Source: Escherichia coli
Lineage (GTDB): Bacteria; Pseudomonadota; Gammaproteobacteria; Enterobacterales; Enterobacteriaceae
Length of the DNA stretch: 27,599 nt
Assembly: GCF_003334405.1 (NCBI RefSeq)
Contig: NZ_QOWM01000029.1
Direction: 5' to 3' (one strand)
Positions 8,683 to 17,658 of this stretch are shown one piece after another. The translations under genes were made by a program, and so were the position numbers. Every line of letters begins with the position of its first letter. The stretch's first letter is position 1. The notes under the pieces were generated by a model. The model was not told where the DNA came from and did no database searches. It worked only from the letters and a program-made list of their open reading frames with translations.

Positions 8683-9075
8683 GTGGACGATGAACGGAAA
8701 AGGAAAAAATTCACACTTTATCTGCATCCGGAAAAAGCTGCAGACTTTCAAACTTTGGAAGCGATAGAGTCCGTTCCGCGTTCTGAGCGTGGTGAGCTGT
8801 TCCGGAATGCATTTATTTCTGGAATGGCGTTACACCAACTTGATCCTCGCCTGCCTGTATTGCTGACTGCCATTTTGAGCGAGGAGTTTTCAGCAGATCA
8901 GGTTGTAACCTTACTCAGTCAGACGACAGGATGGAAGCCTTCTCAGGCCGATATCAGAGCTGTGTTGACTGAACTCGGTGCTTTGCAATCTGCTGAAAAA
9001 ATGCCTCCTTCTGCTACTGATTCGGTGCAGGAGGCAATGAATGATGTGCGCCTTAAAATGCAAAAATTATTCTGA
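8683..9075 (+). CDS. parR: ParR (StbB) centromere-binding adaptor
   Basis: Small ORF directly downstream of parM. Probable GTG start at 8683 preceded by GAGGAG and overlapping the parM stop; product begins (M)DDERKRKKFTLYLHPEKA. Confidence 0.7.
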   Translation: MDDERKRKKFTLYLHPEKAADFQTLEAIESVPRSERGELFRNAFISGMALHQLDPRLPVLLTAILSEEFSADQVVTLLSQTTGWKPSQADIRAVLTELGALQSAEKMPPSATDSVQEAMNDVRLKMQKLF

Positions 9076-9079
9076 TATA

Positions 9080-9450
9080 TCAGAATGAAGCAATGGGGAT
9101 CTCAGTCCATTGTGTTGTATACGAAGGCGAGAGCATTTCCCGTTTCATTTGCCATTCAGGGGCGGTTCCTCGCCCCGCAAACCACACTTTCCCTTTTCCA
9201 GACTGGTTCAGTTCATCGAGTGTTTTCATTAACTTTTCGCTGTTTTTACGGGGCTGGATCTCATCAAATAATCCCGGCTGCGCTATACCCGATGGTGTGA
9301 AATCAGCCAGCATGACTCCTGCCTTCATATAGCGGTACCCTTCACGCCAGACATGGTTTAACGCTCTGCATGCTGCGGCAATAATGTCCCGGCTACCCAG
9401 GCCGTGCCGGCACGTTAACCGGGCTGCATCCGATGCAAGTGTGTCGCTGT
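9080..9450 (-). pseudogene. Y-family DNA polymerase (UmuC/ImpB/MucB-like) 3' fragment
   Basis: Minus-strand translation gives …ALNHVWREGYRYMKAGVMLADFTPSGIAQPGLFDE…WQMKREMLSPSYTT, matching the UmuC-family C-terminus (GYRYKKAGVML…MKREMLSPRYTT). No N-terminal catalytic region is present. Confidence 0.65.
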
Positions 9451-9592
9451 CGCCGGCCTCCTCACCCGGTCACGTTTCGTCGTTCCTCCTCCACGCGCTG
9501 CGGCTTCGGGGCCGCACCTGCATTCGTATGCGGTCGCCCGGTTACAGGTGCGGCACGGCCTGATGGAGGCCGCATGTGAGAGGAGAATTCCC

Positions 9593-10099
9593 ATGCCAAA
9601 CTGGTGCTCAAATCGTATGCATTTTTCTGGTGAACCAGCACAGATCGCTGAGATTAAACGACTGGCCAGCGGTGCAGTCACACCGCTTTATCGCCGCGCC
9701 ACAGATGAAGGTATTCAGCTGTTTCTGGCCGGTAGTGCCGGACTTCTGCAGACCACTGAAGATGTGCGGTTTGAACCATGCCCCGGACTGACGGCTGCCG
9801 GGCGTGGTGTTGTATCGCCGGAGAATATCGCGTTCACCCGCTGGCTGACACACCTGCAGAACGGTGTGCTACTGGATGAACAAAACTGCCTGATGCTGCA
9901 TGAACTCTGGCTGCAGAGTGGTACTGGCCAGCGTCGCTGGGAAGGATTACCGGATGAGGTCAGGGAAACCATCACCGTGCATTTCACCGCCAAAAGAGGT
10001 GACTGGTGTGGCTTCTGGAGTACCGGAGGGAACAAAAGGCAGGTCCCCGCAAAACGTCAAAACCGCGGCTCCCGAAACTCAACAGATGATGGGGGCTGA
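9593..10099 (+). CDS. Hypothetical protein, probably C-terminally truncated or fused
   Basis: ATG at 9593 preceded by GAGAGGAG. Product MPNWCSNRMHFSGEPAQIAEIKRL…; the last ~25 residues look like out-of-frame read-through, suggesting a junction near 10010-10030. Confidence 0.35.
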   Translation: MPNWCSNRMHFSGEPAQIAEIKRLASGAVTPLYRRATDEGIQLFLAGSAGLLQTTEDVRFEPCPGLTAAGRGVVSPENIAFTRWLTHLQNGVLLDEQNCLMLHELWLQSGTGQRRWEGLPDEVRETITVHFTAKRGDWCGFWSTGGNKRQVPAKRQNRGSRNSTDDGG

Positions 10100-10202
10100 A
10101 AACCAGAGAGAGGAGAAAGCAGGATGAGTACCCGTAATGAGGGAAAACAGGGACCATCACTGCCGTACATTCCGTCAGGAAGTTTTGCGAAAGCCATGCT
10201 GA

Positions 10203-10862
10203 TTGAAGGGGCGGATGTCGGTGATGGCCAGCCCCAACGGTAACCTGGATGAAGTGCATGAAGGTCTGCTGCTGCAGGCGGTCAGGGCCTCCTGGCTGGC
10301 TAAAAAGAACAGGGCGCGCATCGATGATGTGGTGGATTTCCTGAAAAACGCCCGTGATAACGACCAGTATGTCGAGTCACCGACCATCCGCAGCCGTCTG
10401 GATGAAATGATTGTCCTGCTGGATCAATATACCGCCGGCGGCACTTACGGCCGGTATTTTAACTCTGATGAGCCGTCCCTGCGGGATGATGCGAAAATGG
10501 TGGTGCTGGAGCTGGGCGGACTGGAAGACCGTCCGTCACTGCTGGTTGCGGTGATGTTCAGCCTCATTATTTACATCGAGAACAGGATGTACCGCACGCC
10601 GCGTAACCTCAAAAAACTGAACGTCATTGATGAGGGATGGCGTCTGCTGGACTTCAAAAATCACAAGGTCGGTGAGTTTATTGAGAAAGGTTACCGTACC
10701 GCCCGCCGTCATACCGGTGCCTATATCACCATCACACAGAACATCGTCGACTTTGACTCTGACAAGGCCTCCAGTGCTGCCCGCGCGGCATGGGGTAACT
10801 CCTCCTACAAAATTATCCTCAAACAGAGTGCGAAGGAGTTCGCGAAATACAACCAGCTGTAA
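10203..10862 (+). pseudogene. traC: Conjugative transfer ATPase TraC (VirB4 family) internal/C-terminal fragment
   Basis: Translation contains KLNVIDEGWRLLDF and flanking sequence resembling the VirB4/TraC ATPase region. Bounded by stops, with no N-terminal domains and no continuation. Confidence 0.5.
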
Positions 10863-11100
10863 CGGCGCAGAGTCACAGCCTGACCCTGCGGGATGCGCAG
10901 GGTGAAACGCAGGTGGTGCGTATTTCTTCTCTGGACAGCAGCTGGTTGCTGTTCCGGCCGGAGAAAATGCCGGTGGCAGACGGCGAGCGTCTGAGGGTGA
11001 CAGGGAAAATTCCCGGACTCCGCGTCTCCGGCGGTGACCGCCTGCAGGTGACATCCGTCAGTGAAGATGCGATGACGGTTGTTGTGCCGGGACGTGCTGA
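10863..11100 (+). pseudogene. traI: Relaxase/helicase TraI internal fragment (plus orientation)
   Basis: Plus-strand translation HSLTLRDAQGETQVVRISSLDSSWLLFRPEKMPVADGERLRVTGKIPGLRVSGGDRLQVTSVSEDAMTVVVPGRAE matches an internal F-type TraI segment, then loses similarity. Confidence 0.6.
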
Positions 11101-12128
11101 ATCCGGACACCATCCTGCATATTATCAGCCAGCAAGCTTTCTCCGTTACGGCTGCCCTGCAGGGCCACGAACTGCGCATCCCCGCTGCCCTTCACCCGTC
11201 CTTCACCACTGAATCCCCGCAGCCCGTTTCCGTCATCCGTGGTCAGTGGGTTCAGCCAGATACCGGCGGACTTGCCGTTACGGTCAAACGCCGGCAGTGC
11301 CACATACGGCTGCGGATATTTACGTCCCGGTGCAATAAACCGTGCCGGGCTGTCTCCCCCGGCCAGCCCTGCCTGACGGAGAACGGCACGGCCGGCCGCC
11401 ACGTCCCGCAGTTCCCGTGCCGTACTGAACAGCCGCTCTGCATTCATGACCTCCCGGTCAGCTTTTGGCTCCAGCACATCGTGGGCAGTCCCTTTCTGTA
11501 CGGCATTGTTAATGGCATCCGTCCAGCCCTGACGGTTATCGGTGTACACCTGCACATGCTGCTTCATACGCGACAGGGCCACGTAGGCTGACTCAAAGCC
11601 GGCCATCAGTTTCCGGTTACCTTCCGTGCCTTCAAGCGCAATGGCAAAGGTTTCACTTGCCCCCTGCGCACCGTGAGCGGTGATGGCATAGGCCAGGTCA
11701 ATATGTTGCTCTGCCTGCTCCTGGCCGGGGCGAATCTCCCGGGTCTGCTGTCCGTCCGACAGCGTGACACTGTCACCGGAAACTGCTGTCACCGTCCAGA
11801 CGCTGTTGGCAACATAACCGCGCTCCCGGTCACTCTTCGTGAAGCGCATCCGGTCACCGGTCCCCACCCTGATGGTGTCCGGGGTGTACAGTGTGACACC
11901 TTCAGCCACCGCCTCCCGGGGAGAAATCAGCCGCGTGTTACCTTCCGCATCCTGCAGGGTTATCAGCCCGTCATCCTTACTGATACCGGCAATCCGATGA
12001 TACACATTATCCACCAGGACAAGTGCGTCCCGATGTGTCTCCCAGGTGGAGAGACGACGCAGCTCCCCGTCACGTATATTCGCTGTGTTCAGGACAGGCA
12101 CCATGACCTGCTCTTTCCCCAGCTCTCG
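11100..12128 (-). pseudogene. traI: Relaxase/helicase TraI C-terminal-region fragment (inverted relative to the other traI piece and to finO)
   Basis: 357-aa minus-strand ORF ([29 protein letters not shown]…GSRNGESLLADNMQDGVRI) matches the F TraI C-terminal region and then diverges into non-homologous sequence before the stop. Confidence 0.8.
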
Positions 12129-12341
12129 CATAAAAAACTGCGCAGGGCGCTGAAGGCCATCACCCGTTCAGAAAGCTATCTGTGTGCCATGAAAGCCGGT
12201 GCCTGCCGGTATGACACGGAAGGGTATGTGACGGAGCATATTTCTCAGGAGGAGGAAGCGTATGCGGCAGAGCGTCTGGATAAAATCCGCCGCCAGAACC
12301 GGATAAAGGCAGAACTTCAGGCCGTGCTTGATGAGAAATAA
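12120..12341 (+). pseudogene. finO: finO 3' fragment (fertility inhibition RNA chaperone, C-terminal ~70 codons)
   Basis: Plus-strand translation [72 protein letters not shown] matches the FinO C-terminus. Upstream sequence in the same frame is the antisense of the traI fragment, so the 5' two-thirds of finO is missing. Confidence 0.8.
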
Positions 12342-12342
12342 A

Positions 12343-12375
12343 AAAAGCCTCCCTCAGGGAGGGGAGGCAGGGAAA
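12343..12375. terminator. GC-rich hairpin flanked by an A-run (putative terminator downstream of finO)
   Basis: AAAAAAAGCCTCCCTCAGGGAGGGG: inverted repeat CCTCCCT/AGGGAGG; on the minus strand the hairpin is followed by a T-run. Confidence 0.35.
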
Positions 12376-12471
12376 TAAGGCTTAAAAGGAAATAACTTCC
12401 GTACCCGAAAGAAAGCCAGTCCACTGAACTATTTATCACAATAATACTGACAACTAAAGGGGGGCAGAAAT

Positions 12472-12612
12472 ATGAATGGATTCAGAAACAGTTCACGGAA
12501 CGCTCAGGTCTGGCGCTGGCAGCGTGCCGGAAGCCGGGCCGTTATTCTGGAGGTCAGTGGACGCACGAAAAAAGCAGCCTTCATTACTCCAGGGATTCAG
12601 AAGGCTGAATAA
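12472..12612 (+). CDS. Small hypothetical protein (46 aa)
   Basis: ATG at 12472 preceded by a G-rich Shine-Dalgarno (AAAGGGGGG); product MNGFRNSSRNAQVWRWQRAGSRAVILEVSGRTKKAAFITPGIQKAE. Below the ORF-track size cut-off and with no recognised homology, so tentative. Confidence 0.25.
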   Translation: MNGFRNSSRNAQVWRWQRAGSRAVILEVSGRTKKAAFITPGIQKAE

Positions 12613-12811
12613 TGCATGAGATTTTCTTTTTTTAATATCCGGTCGGGCAGTATAACCGGACAGTTCTGAGTAGCACAGGTTTTTTTTTCGTGTTAAGTCG
12701 TGATTTTATATTTTGCGATTAATTTCACAAAATAAGGTGTTATTCATTGTGTGCTGCAATGTTCAGGATGCCTGAAATACAGGAGCCATTTTATCTGATA
12801 TGGAGAATAAC

Positions 12812-13273
12812 ATGAGGAAATATATTCCACTGGTATTATTTATCTTTTCATGGCCGGTATTGTCTGCAGATATTCATGGACGGGTTGTTCGTGTACTGGA
12901 CGGTGATACCATCGAGGTCATGGACTCACGGAAGGCGGTGCGGATCAGGCTGGTAAATATTGATGCACCGGAAAAGAAACAGGATTATGGCCGGTGGTCA
13001 ACAGACATGATGAAATCACTGGTCGCAGGAAAAACGGTTACCGTCACATATTTTCAGCGAGATCGTTATGGTCGTATTCTCGGGCAGGTTTATGCGCCAG
13101 ACGGAATGAATATTAATCAGTTTATGGTCCGGGCCGGGGCTGCCTGGGTATATGAGCAGTACAACACAGATCCCGTGCTGCCTGTCCTTCAGAACGAAGC
13201 CAGACAACAAAAACGTGGGCTCTGGTCAGATGCTGATCCGGTTCCCCCCTGGATATGGAGGTACCGTAAATAA
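12812..13273 (+). CDS. Secreted thermonuclease-family (staphylococcal nuclease-like) endonuclease
   Basis: Signal peptide (MRKYIPLVLFIFSWPVLSA) followed by SNase-fold motifs (VVRVLDGDTIEV, RIRLVNIDAPE, DRYGRILGQVY). Confidence 0.75.
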   Translation: MRKYIPLVLFIFSWPVLSADIHGRVVRVLDGDTIEVMDSRKAVRIRLVNIDAPEKKQDYGRWSTDMMKSLVAGKTVTVTYFQRDRYGRILGQVYAPDGMNINQFMVRAGAAWVYEQYNTDPVLPVLQNEARQQKRGLWSDADPVPPWIWRYRK

Positions 13274-13318
13274 AGCGATGGCAATCCTATCATTCATTTG
13301 TTCTTAGCGGGAATAAAA

Positions 13319-13528
13319 ATGGCAAAAACAAAACAGGAATGGCTGTATCAGTTACGGCGATGTTCATCAGTCAATACGCTGGAAAAAATTATTCATAAAA
13401 ACAGAGACAGTTTATCGAACAGTGAACGTGAATCATTTAATTCAGCAGCAGACCACCGGTTAGCAGAATTAATCACCGGAAAGTTATATGACAGGATACC
13501 AAAAGAAATATGGAAATATGTAAGGTAA
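13319..13528 (+). CDS. Hypothetical small protein (69 aa)
   Basis: ORF between the nuclease gene and the DUF2726-like gene; product MAKTKQEWLYQLRRCSSVNTLEKI…; weak SD. Confidence 0.35.
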   Translation: MAKTKQEWLYQLRRCSSVNTLEKIIHKNRDSLSNSERESFNSAADHRLAELITGKLYDRIPKEIWKYVR

Positions 13529-13566
13529 TAATTCAGCAATAATTAATTACCAGGAGCAGATAAACA

Positions 13567-14157
13567 ATGAAGCTGATTATTTTTATTCTTATTGTTCTGA
13601 TTATTGCAGCGTTACTTATCCGGATTATCCTCAGAAGTGTAAATCAGCATTCTCCTTTGCTGATGCAATTGCATGCGGCAGGTATACGGACCGGTGATGC
13701 AGAGCGAATACTGTCCAGCGGTGAATACTGGCAACGTCAGAAGACGCTGCTGACAGAAAGGGAGGTCAGTTTTATGAAAGGACTGTTCAGAATTGTGGAT
13801 ATGAAGCGGTGGTATCTGTGTCCGCAGGTACGGGTCGCGGATATCGTCCAGCTGAACGGGAATATCCGGCCACGATCACGCCAGTGGTGGCAGTTATTCA
13901 GGATGGTGTCTCAGTGGCATGTTGATGTGGTTATCGTTGAGCGGCGTTCGTTCAGTATTGTTGCAGCAGTAGAGCTGGATGATGCCAGCCATTTACGACC
14001 GGAACGCAGACGCCGGGATATTCTTCTGGAAGAGGTTCTGAGGCAGGCTGGTATTCCGTTGCTCAGAAGCCACGATGCCAGAAAACTGCTGCAGATGACC
14101 GGAGAATGGCTGAATACAACAGGGGCTGATCAGCAGTCACCGGAACATCGTAGCTGA
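13567..14157 (+). CDS. Membrane-anchored DUF2726-like protein
   Basis: 196-aa protein with a strongly hydrophobic N-terminal segment (MKLIIFILIVLIIAALLIRIIL) and a C-terminal region (WYLCPQVRVADIV…ELDDASH…RRRRDILLEEVLRQAGIPLLR) resembling the DUF2726 family as I recall it. Confidence 0.55.
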   Translation: MKLIIFILIVLIIAALLIRIILRSVNQHSPLLMQLHAAGIRTGDAERILSSGEYWQRQKTLLTEREVSFMKGLFRIVDMKRWYLCPQVRVADIVQLNGNIRPRSRQWWQLFRMVSQWHVDVVIVERRSFSIVAAVELDDASHLRPERRRRDILLEEVLRQAGIPLLRSHDARKLLQMTGEWLNTTGADQQSPEHRS

Positions 14158-14396
14158 CGCCTTCGCGTTGCTCAGTTGTCCAACCCCGGAAACGGGAAAA
14201 AGCAAGTTTTCCCCGCTCCCGGCGTTTCTATAACTGAAAACCATACTATTTCACAGTTTAAATCACATTAAACGACAGTAATCCCCGTTGATTTGTGCGC
14301 CAACACAGATCTTCGTCACAATTCTCAAGTCGCTGATTTCAAAAAACTGTAGTATCCTCTGCGAAACGATCCCTGTTTGAGTATTGAGGAGGCGAG

Positions 14397-14657
14397 ATGT
14401 CGCAGACAGAAAATGCAGTGACTTCCTCATTGAGTCAAAAGCGGTTTGTGCGCAGAGGTAAGCCTATGACTGACTCTGAGAAACAAATGGCCGCTGTTGC
14501 AAGAAAACGTCTTACACACAAAGAGATAAAAGTTTTTGTCAAAAATCCTCTGAAAGATCTCATGGTTGAGTACTGCGAGAGAGAGGGGATAACACAGGCT
14601 CAGTTCGTTGAGAAAATCATCAAAGATGAACTGCAGAGACTGGATATACTAAAGTAA
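14397..14657 (+). CDS. repA2: RepA2 / CopB transcriptional repressor of repA (RepFIIA replicon)
   Basis: 86-aa product [86 protein letters not shown] is near-identical to R100/R1 CopB as recalled. Confidence 0.9.
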
Positions 14658-16905: not shown

Positions 16906-17409
16906 TTATTGATAGTGTTTTATGTTCAGATAATGCCCGATGACTTTGTTATGCAGCTCCACCGATTTTGAGAACGACAGCGACTTCCGTCCCAGCCGTG
17001 CCAGGTGCTGCCTCAGATTCAGGTTATGCCGCTCAATTCGCTGCGTATATCGCTTGCTGATTACGTGCAGCTTTCCCTTCAGGCGGGATTCATACAGCGG
17101 CCAGCCATCCGTCATCCATATCACCACGTCAAAGGGTGACAGCAGGCTCATAAGACGCCCCAGCGTCGCCATAGTGCGTTCACCGAATACGTGCGCAACA
17201 ACCGTCTTCCGGAGACTGTCATACGCGTAAAACAGCCAGCGCTGGCGCGATTTAGCCCCGACATAGCCCCACTGTTCGTCCATTTCCGCGCAGACGATGA
17301 CGTCACTGCCCGGCTGTATGCGCGAGGTTACCGACTGCGGCCTGAGTTTTTTAAGTGACGTAAAATCGTGTTGAGGCCAACGCCCATAATGCGGGCAGTT
17401 GCCCGGCAT
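16906..17409 (-). CDS. insB: IS1 transposase InsB (C-terminal part of the InsAB' frameshift fusion)
   Basis: 167-aa ORF with the IS1 InsB sequence (…[72 protein letters not shown]). Confidence 0.9.
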
Positions 17410-17603
17410 CCAACGCCATTCATGGCCATATCAATGATTTTCTGGTGCGTACCGGGTTGAGAAGCGGTGTAAGTGAACTGCAGTTGCCATGTTTTACGGC
17501 AGTGAGAGCAGAGATAGCGCTGATGTCCGGCGGTGCTTTTGCCGTTACGCACCACCCCGTCAGTAGCTGAACAGGAGGGACAGCTGATAGAAACAGAAGC
17601 CAC
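17328..17603 (-). CDS. insA: IS1 InsA (transposition inhibitor / N-terminal part of InsAB')
   Basis: 91-aa product [43 protein letters not shown]… matches IS1 InsA as recalled. Confidence 0.9.
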
Positions 17604-17658
17604 TGGAGCACCTCAAAAACACCATCATACACTAAATCAGTAAGTTGGCAGCATCACC

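Follow-up and report, generated by a model that had tools for sequence, protein, structure and literature searches.

Why the transfer region of an F-like plasmid should have been reduced to a string of short gene pieces, and what kind of event joined them, is the question raised by positions 9080-12341 of a 27,599-nucleotide stretch of Escherichia coli DNA (contig NZ_QOWM01000029.1; hereafter the window, meaning the whole stretch). A reading of the letters without database searches (the sequence-only reading) had described this region as a patchwork of fragments of umuC, traC, traI and finO and one piece of unknown origin, joined at no fewer than five junctions, and had attributed it to illegitimate recombination instead of clean loss mediated by insertion sequences (IS). 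We mapped the window by local blastn to pMRGN1031 (NZ_CP019561.1), an intact F-like plasmid with complete leading and tra regions, whose record coordinates are given below as reference coordinates. The region is very probably a non-functional scar of an IncFII leading region and tra operon, left by serial deletions and one inversion that required neither RecA nor an IS. The same nucleotide positions that end its fragments also serve as junction ends, with different partners, in other F-like plasmids.

Eight backbone fragments and seven direct joins

Overlapping fragments of the F-like backbone tile every base of the window from 6464 to 14430, and within 9080-12341 eight of them follow one another in backbone order, one inverted, with seven junctions (J1 to J7). 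The suspected patchwork and its junctions are real, but the earlier count fell short of seven, since a leading-region piece and a traB piece had been missed. About 52 kb of backbone (reference 60286-112408) has shrunk to about 2.8 kb in the window. Compared with the intact pMRGN1031 genes, the fragments show an identity of 96.7-100%, the traB, traC and inverted traI pieces together having zero differences over 1,761 nt. Because of this identity the pieces are recent fragments, and the prospect that they are intact but diverged genes, which would have spoken against a patchwork, does not agree with the alignment.

On the left, parA, parM, stbB and the last 315 nt of umuC occupy 6464-9394 (reference 57354-60285). 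The umuC 3' remnant itself (9080..9394, minus strand; reference 59971-60285, 98.8% identity) retains 315 of 1272 nt and gives an open reading frame (ORF) of 82 amino acids at 9080-9328. The piece formerly called unknown (9388..10025, plus strand; 62113-62750, 96.7%) is made of 229 nt of intergenic sequence and the 5' 409 of the 902 nt of a DUF1281 gene. It is followed by a 121-bp leading-region piece (10018..10138, plus; 76781-76848 plus 78225-78279), which starts where a repeated ssi/Frpo-like sequence ends and reaches the start codon region of the gene at reference 78265; this piece is contiguous in many plasmids (121-bp matches, 98.3%), pMRGN1031 having an IS110-family insertion inside it. 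Next come an internal traB fragment of 89 bp, covering TraB amino acids about 200-230 (10129..10217, plus; 85078-85166, 100%), and an internal traC fragment of 646 bp, covering amino acids 558-773 of the 875 of TraC (10216..10861, plus; 89490-90135, 100%). The ORF over the traC fragment (10203-10862, 219 amino acids) ends at a TAA stop codon assembled at J5 from the TA of traC and an A of traI. Two traI fragments follow, the first, of 248 bp, in native orientation and from the helicase region (10859..11106, plus; 108002-108248; TraI amino acids 674-756), the second, of 1,026 bp, inverted (11100..12125, minus; 110764-109739, 100%; amino acids 1253-1594). The inverted piece gives an ORF of 357 amino acids (11058-12131, minus) that matches positions 1120-1463 of the NCBIfam TraI model. 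The finO 3' remnant (12119..12341, plus; reference 112409 onward; FinO amino acids 113-186) closes the patchwork, after which nuc, hha and repA follow. A chimeric ORF of 222 amino acids (11673-12341) passes antisense through the inverted traI piece and ends with the finO frame as its tail.

At J1 (9394), umuC (reference 60285) meets sequence upstream of DUF1281 (62113) through a single shared T, with an imperfect match at 5 of 7 positions; the right parent reads GGT-TA/CCCAGG, the slash marking here and below the point of crossover. J2 (10021..10022) joins DUF1281 (...CTGGAGTA/) to the leading region (reference 76784, AATA/CCGGAGG) at a shared TA, and J3 (10129..10134) joins the leading region (GAG-TA/CCCGaAAT) to traB (GTT-TA/CCCGTAAT) at a shared TACCCG, matching at 9 of 10 positions when extended. 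The traB and traC pieces share TG at J4 (10216..10217), while J5 (10861..10862), between traC (...CAGCTGTA/) and traI (/ACGGCGCAG), is blunt. J6 (11100..11101) is the head-to-head traI junction, which had been placed at about 11100; its exact microhomology is AA, and the homeology between its parents extends over AA(T)CCGG.CACC, present in traI as an inverted repeat. The join between the inverted traI piece and the finO 3' part, likewise located correctly beforehand (at about 12120-12128, with a short shared sequence), is J7, with GCTC common to both parents at 12122..12125.

Exact microhomology, taken as the bases common to both parents at the join, thus amounts to 1, 2, 6, 2, 0, 2 and 4 nt from J1 to J7. 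Past the overlap the partner sites are no more similar than random sequence (2.5 matches per 10 nt), and the longest imperfect overlap in the whole junction sample described below is 19 nt (in plasmid L016). No window junction has the tens of base pairs of homology at the crossover that RecA-type recombination requires. At J1 to J7 we found no IS sequence or IS end, no inverted repeat, no target duplication and no filler base, 9080-12341 being fully covered by backbone. Since these are direct joins of non-adjacent backbone with 0-6 nt of microhomology and without IS end, duplication or filler, they are best read as products of illegitimate recombination and not of IS-mediated loss, as the sequence-only reading had proposed. 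IS1, IS256-family and IS110-family elements do lie elsewhere in the window, and one might imagine IS-mediated deletions with later loss of the IS, an assembly artefact, or intact diverged genes. Such explanations are already contradicted and extremely improbable, as all bases at the junctions are backbone, every fragment matches part of an intact gene at 96.7-100% identity, and the same kind of junction occurs in many independently sequenced complete plasmids.

A search of PLSDB and of RefSeq E. coli found no record covering at least 80% of the patchwork, so its history cannot be read from a close relative, and J2 to J7 are likewise absent from PLSDB and from the complete E. coli records of RefSeq. 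J1 is also present in a 108-kb conjugative plasmid (L019, NZ_CP054663.1), with a flank identity of 95.5% and one base different at the join; the DUF1281 gene and the leading-region genes continue intact past it. Because J1 is shared with a conjugative plasmid, it appears to be older than, and unrelated to, the loss of tra.

The same nucleotides are broken in different plasmids

If deletions had ended at arbitrary points, their ends should coincide rarely between plasmids. As a comparison set we used tra-decayed F-like plasmids drawn from BLAST matches (L001, L002, L005, L007-L011, L014-L016 and L020-L022; L002 is NZ_CP176788.1, L008 is pAA, L020 is NZ_CP122849.1 and L021 is NZ_CP091039.1), each mapped to pMRGN1031, which gave a sample of about 40 non-IS junctions, contributed by about 12 F-like plasmids. 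L017, L018, L022 and L023 added few or zero new non-IS junctions, and L021 is a duplicate of L020. Coincident breakpoint pairs within 5 bp number at least 16, compared with about 0.5 by chance, an expectation obtained by simple arithmetic for 68 breakpoints in 55 kb.

The clearest case is the traC site at reference 90135 (...AAATACAACCAGCTGTA/), which in five plasmids is joined to five partners: traW 91288 (L020), traN 93125 (L002), traI 107792 (L005), traI 108002 (the window) and a repA-distal position, 116822 (L001). The flanking alleles of this site differ by no more than 6%, and L021 has the same junction as L020. The DUF1281 site at 62747 (...CTGGRGTA/) leads to 73958 in L020/L021, to 76781 in the window and to traC 89151 in L001. 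Three uses each were found for traI 108002 (window, L002, L020/L021), for umuC 60228 (L008, L009 and L016, with three partners) and for traB 85078, whose right side is kept in the window and in L016 and whose left side is kept in L005. Sites used twice are methylase 64078 (L007, L010), traC 89151 (L001, L020), traI about 110412 (L009, L022) and traI about 110760 (110759-110764), the last inverted in the window at J6 and direct in L008. In traB, the hot region of pMRGN1031 at 85058-85083 (window ~10129) has two inverted copies of the motif described below, 16 bp apart (CCGGATA/CAGCGTAAGGTGTTTA/CCCG), and breaks have occurred at each of the two, in different plasmids. Three unrelated patchworks, those of the window, L007 (85062-85201) and L005 (85029-85089), retain small traB fragments that overlap here. 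The L001 junction GGGGTA/GTGGCGG is the exact product of a crossover between two L020 junctions, GGGGTA/TCCC... and ...CCATTA/GTGGCGG, indicating that junctions themselves are reused.

Several observations stand beside this recurrence. In L020 and L021, from porcine E. coli of Belgium and China, the tra patchwork is identical and has nine junctions; it is made of a DUF1281/parB-like join, three traC pieces, traW-traU, traD and two traI pieces, and MOB-suite nevertheless types these plasmids as "conjugative". L001, from a human isolate in China, seems to derive from this lineage by further deletion. L002 has at 4100-7400 an inverted internal traI segment (reference 108001-109499), annotated as "AAA family ATPase", one end of which is the traI 108002 breakpoint of the window. 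Exact-pattern scans for the rearranged traC junctions (GCGAAATACAACCAGCTGTAV) gave 0 matches in metagenome contigs and in genome contigs.

A TA-centred motif at the crossover

The recurrent sites share a crossover consensus of about CSGK-TA-YCCG, with G/C-rich and partly dyad-symmetric flanks around a central TA. We compared 34 junctions, that is 68 parental sites, with random placement in 2000 trials. A TA lies at the crossover in both parents of 13 of the 34 junctions, compared with 2.7 expected and a maximum of 8, and A/YCCG, on either strand, lies at 18 of the 68 parental sites against a random mean of 2.2 and a maximum of 9. The flanks of 33 breakpoint TAs were then set against all 2,299 TA dinucleotides in the region. 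Downstream, Y occupies position +1 in 27 of 33 (C in 16 against 8.6 expected, T in 11 against 12.8), C occupies +2 in 27 of 33 (9.4 expected) and +3 in 17 of 33 (7.8), and G occupies +4 in 20 of 33 (8.6). Upstream, position -1 is mostly G or T and position -2 mostly G, and C is found at -4 in 15 of 33 (8.0 expected).

The motif was derived partly from the same data that it was used to score, with the exception of L020: it was built from the first eleven plasmids, and in the later L020 five of six new junctions had TA in both parents and an adjacent YCC. Among the TAYCCG[ATG]AA sites of pMRGN1031, 5 of 7 are breakpoints in this small sample, the two without a break lying at reference 80319 and 102057. 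In the window, 10-11 of 14 fragment ends lie at motif sites or close variants: TA/CCCA at reference 62119, TA/ACGA at 62746, TA/CCGG at 76784, TA/CCCG at 78270 and 85078, CGGA/TG at 85166, TA/TCCG at 90134, CGGG/TG at 108002, AA/CCGG at 108248 and AA/TCCGG at 110764.

We take the patchwork to be the result of deletion and inversion by illegitimate recombination directed to hotspots, with conservative recombination at TA and template switching as the two leading sub-hypotheses on the agent. The process would cut or stall preferentially at TA sites and rejoin at TA, either through a sequence-preferring activity that breaks and rejoins DNA or through replication stalling and template switching at quasi-palindromes. 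The events would be mostly sequential, J1 being older in view of its presence in the conjugative L019, and earlier junctions have served again as the end points of later deletions.

Several points weigh against this explanation. J4 (TG), J7 (GCTC) and the umuC side of J1 are without the full motif, and for this reason the events need not all share one cause. No enzyme with CSGK-TA-YCCG specificity was identified among Rci, ResD, IS110-family transposases, gyrase and topoisomerase I. The small sample, of about 12 plasmids, was picked opportunistically from BLAST lists and contains kin, with L020 the same as L021, L001 a relative of L020, and one flank common to L008, L009 and L016. The parents were read from one reference allele for all plasmids, so some microhomology calls may be 1-2 nt off, and the order of J2 to J7 is not derivable. 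The non-transmissibility of the plasmid, to which we return below, is a prediction from gene content alone.

Possible agents: a dedicated enzyme or template switching

It is possible, and we say so tentatively, that an unrecognised break-and-rejoin activity erodes F-like plasmids at a central TA (about CSGK-TA-YCCG), reusing both sites and hybrid junctions. In its most specific form, to which we give similarly restrained credence, this would be a dedicated conservative recombinase or transposition-type enzyme that cuts the central TA with a 2-nt stagger and rejoins two CSGK-TA-YCCG-like sites. Candidates are a serine recombinase, a transposase or some other strand-transferase, of host origin or carried by a co-resident element, and the enzyme would delete, invert or re-insert the DNA between the two sites. 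In both parents the crossover point is fixed at TA, as in five separate traC events, and the motif is partly dyad-symmetric around this TA. Either side of a site can be retained (traB 85078, traI about 110760), a hybrid junction has been reused exactly (L001 and L020), and the partners show no homeology beyond the overlap. However, the known enzymes that were checked (Rci, ResD, IS110-family) provide no match, some junctions pair TA with TG (J5, L001b) or have no TA, and the information in the motif is low, roughly 6-8 bits.

Alternatively, and in our estimation rather doubtfully, replication forks could stall at G/C-TA-G/C quasi-palindromes on the lagging-strand template, whereupon the nascent 3' end re-anneals at a microhomology, as in microhomology-mediated break-induced replication or fork stalling and template switching (MMBIR/FoSTeS). 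Several switches in one episode would give a collinear patchwork of many fragments, with small pieces and an inverted piece. Tiny collinear pieces of 63-140 bp are indeed retained in the window, L005 and L007, the microhomologies are 0-6 nt, and a 4-nt insertion in L014 may be templated. IncFII replication is unidirectional, and the breakpoints use the motif mostly on the top strand, which would then be the lagging-strand template. On the other hand, J1 is a separate and older event, and annealing accounts poorly for the exact reuse of junctions (L001 and L020) and for joins that are blunt or overlap by 2 nt at a fixed nucleotide.

The C at -4 brings to mind type IA topoisomerases. In vivo mapping of E. 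coli topoisomerase I placed cleavage at TA, with a required C four nucleotides upstream and an AT-rich motif, TCNTTA/T (PMC9352719). Cutting of single-stranded DNA at TA sites by topoisomerase I or III could seed breaks, an unlikely origin of the junctions in our view, topoisomerase I matching the breakpoint sites only in part. C is enriched at -3 and -4 of the breakpoint TA (15 of 33, about 8 expected), in agreement with the mapped cleavage at TA, and the strand bias would suit an enzyme acting on single-stranded DNA. The breakpoint motif, however, is G/C-rich, in contrast to the AT-rich published motif, with its strongest signal in the YCCG 3' of the TA; the traC crossover falls after TA and not within T/A; and we know of no established pathway by which type IA topoisomerases form deletions.

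Candidate agents examined

Other candidates were compared with the motif. The sfx site of the shufflon recombinase Rci has the core GTGCCAA/ and the right arm TCCGGTACGTGG (PMC4176322). The hot spots share only 5-8 nt with sfx, at most CAATCCGG (traI about 110760) or A/TCCGG (traC). They do not contain the core, and deletions make up most of the events, whereas Rci would give inversions only.

Secondary sites of a ResD-type resolution system were considered because the window encodes a ResD/Rsd-like tyrosine recombinase (5685-6428), directly after whose stop codon stands a dif/lox-like palindrome, CATAATTCATAA-ATTATAA-TTATGAATTGTG (6424-6454). It is the only lox/dif-like palindrome adjoining this gene and is probably the multimer-resolution site of the plasmid, equivalent to rfsF. 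Homology between plasmids, and a transposon insertion in the reference, start a few bases downstream of it. The palindrome is AT-rich and Xer-like, unlike CSGK-TA-YCCG, and ResD/rfsF secondary sites were rejected on these grounds.

An IS110-family route, in which two insertions recombine and the element is then excised without a scar, was likewise considered. The window has, within ~2581-4282, an IS5075-like element of this family (about 2865-4281; transposase 2928-3989), adjoining the end of a Tn3-family transposase gene, with a 39-bp remnant of a Tn3-family terminal repeat after it, as in the IS4321/IS5075-style insertion into the inverted repeats of transposons. In pMRGN1031 the IS110-family copy is inserted at CAACAG/ATGATG. 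Neither insertion site, in the window or in the reference, resembles the motif.

DNA gyrase, which cuts with a 4-nt stagger, fits poorly. Its published motif is degenerate, with scission before G (PMC6379681) when quinolones are present. Many breakpoint sites are GTAC or GTAT, but all five traC events cross after the third nucleotide, which would not be expected from a 4-nt heteroduplex. Cleavage of mRNA coupled to translation, followed by an RNA-templated event, was rejected too: there is no codon-phase bias, the T falling on codon positions 1, 2 and 3 in 9, 8 and 12 cases against a background of 458, 347 and 805, and several sites are intergenic. Extended homeology between partner sites was also looked for, and none was found past the BLAST overlap. 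To our knowledge, crossover directly after TA together with YCCG is reproduced neither by CCGG- or GTAC-type restriction enzymes, by Chi/RecBCD (wrong orientation) or by relaxase nic sites (F, RP4, R64, RSF1010), nor by Cre/lox, Hin/Gin, the cleavage preferences of RuvC and RusA or the UAH preference of PemK.

Predicted loss of transfer capacity

Whether the plasmid could still move was assessed from its gene content. The window is most likely a complete circular IncFII plasmid of 27.6 kb, all 27,599 bases forming one circle, since its two ends split a Pef/Afr (K88-like) fimbrial operon of the minus strand (1-1176 and 24402-27599). By local blastn against pMRGN1031, nothing in the window maps to reference 78280-85077, the segment with the origin of transfer (oriT) and traM to traK, nor to traD, traA-K, traN-H or the TraI relaxase domain. 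The F nic site (GCGTGGGGTGT/GGTGC), present in pMRGN1031 at about 80393, is absent from the window even with up to 3 mismatches allowed, as is in keeping with the earlier remark that neither oriT nor a relaxase function was to be seen. The remaining tra coding sequence specifies TraI amino acids 674-756 and 1253-1594, TraC amino acids 558-773 and about 30 codons of traB. Among the features by which MOBF/MPF-F transfer systems are recognised, the nic site, the relaxase domain, the coupling protein and the genes for pilus and type IV secretion system (T4SS) are all missing.

From the lack of oriT, relaxase domain, TraD and pilus genes in a circular plasmid, it is therefore reasonable to expect that this plasmid is non-conjugative and non-mobilisable by F-type helpers. 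The sequence-only reading had likewise held that the transfer region was essentially gone and the plasmid non-conjugative, and the mapping bears it out as a prediction from gene content. The plasmid would now rely on vertical inheritance, served by parM/stbB, hok-type and IncFII replication functions.

Relation to known systems

Taken alone, the region is an ordinary example of an F-type virulence plasmid that sheds costly transfer genes and becomes fixed in a lineage. Remnant tra regions in non-conjugative IncF plasmids are already well known, and the window is an unusually far-eroded example. It resembles IncF virulence and resistance plasmids that are non-conjugative and retain only remnants of tra (pAA-type, enterotoxigenic E. 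coli, E. albertii; here the whole comparison set apart from L021 and L022) in that internal gene fragments are joined directly, and it shares with the sampled plasmids a backbone of parA-parM-stbB, umuDC, DUF1281, leading region, tra, finO, nuc, hha and IncFII repA. It differs from them in that J2 to J7 were not found in PLSDB or RefSeq complete E. coli records and in that the decay is unusually far advanced.

The joins recall the short-homology-dependent and -independent illegitimate recombination of E. coli, with 0-6 nt of microhomology and neither long homology nor a mobile element. Contrary to what would be expected of the classical process, the same phosphodiester bond is reused with different partners across plasmids, and a TA flanked by YCCG is preferred. 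The junctions also resemble secondary-site recombination by integron integrases, Cin/Gin invertases or Rci, where crossover occurs at a fixed short core with a degenerate flank, deletions and inversion are both produced, and hybrid sites are reused; unlike in those systems, the sites do not match the ones that were checked (the Rci sfx and the resD-associated site). A limited search of the literature on tra deletions, rfsF/ResD, sfx and topoisomerase did not find nucleotide-precise reuse of TA-centred sites.

What the junctions add is evidence for a strongly non-random placement of the breaks, a few short TA-centred sites in umuC, DUF1281, methylase, traB, traC and traI being broken repeatedly. 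Should this hold in a systematic survey, a specific enzyme or a replication hazard would shape the evolution of IncF plasmids, the deletion derivatives that arise would be predictable, and the order of events could be reconstructed in virulence and resistance plasmid lineages. If a break-and-rejoin activity were responsible, the loss of conjugation genes would be semi-programmed and driven by hotspots, and not random decay.

Other genes of the window

The fimbrial operon, all on the minus strand, encodes a PefA-like major subunit (634-1176), a chaperone (24928-25788) and a PefC/AfrB-type usher that is without its first ~190 amino acids (25697-27544). Chromosomal-type metabolic DNA has been captured on this small plasmid as well: fragments of an anaerobic sulfite reductase operon at 16906-21576, comprising the C-terminal part of AsrA (17677-18177), a full AsrB (18181-18999) and part of AsrC (19242-19934), are flanked by an IS1 remnant (16906-17409) on one side and by a frameshifted IS256-family (IS1414-like) transposase gene (20367-21576) on the other.

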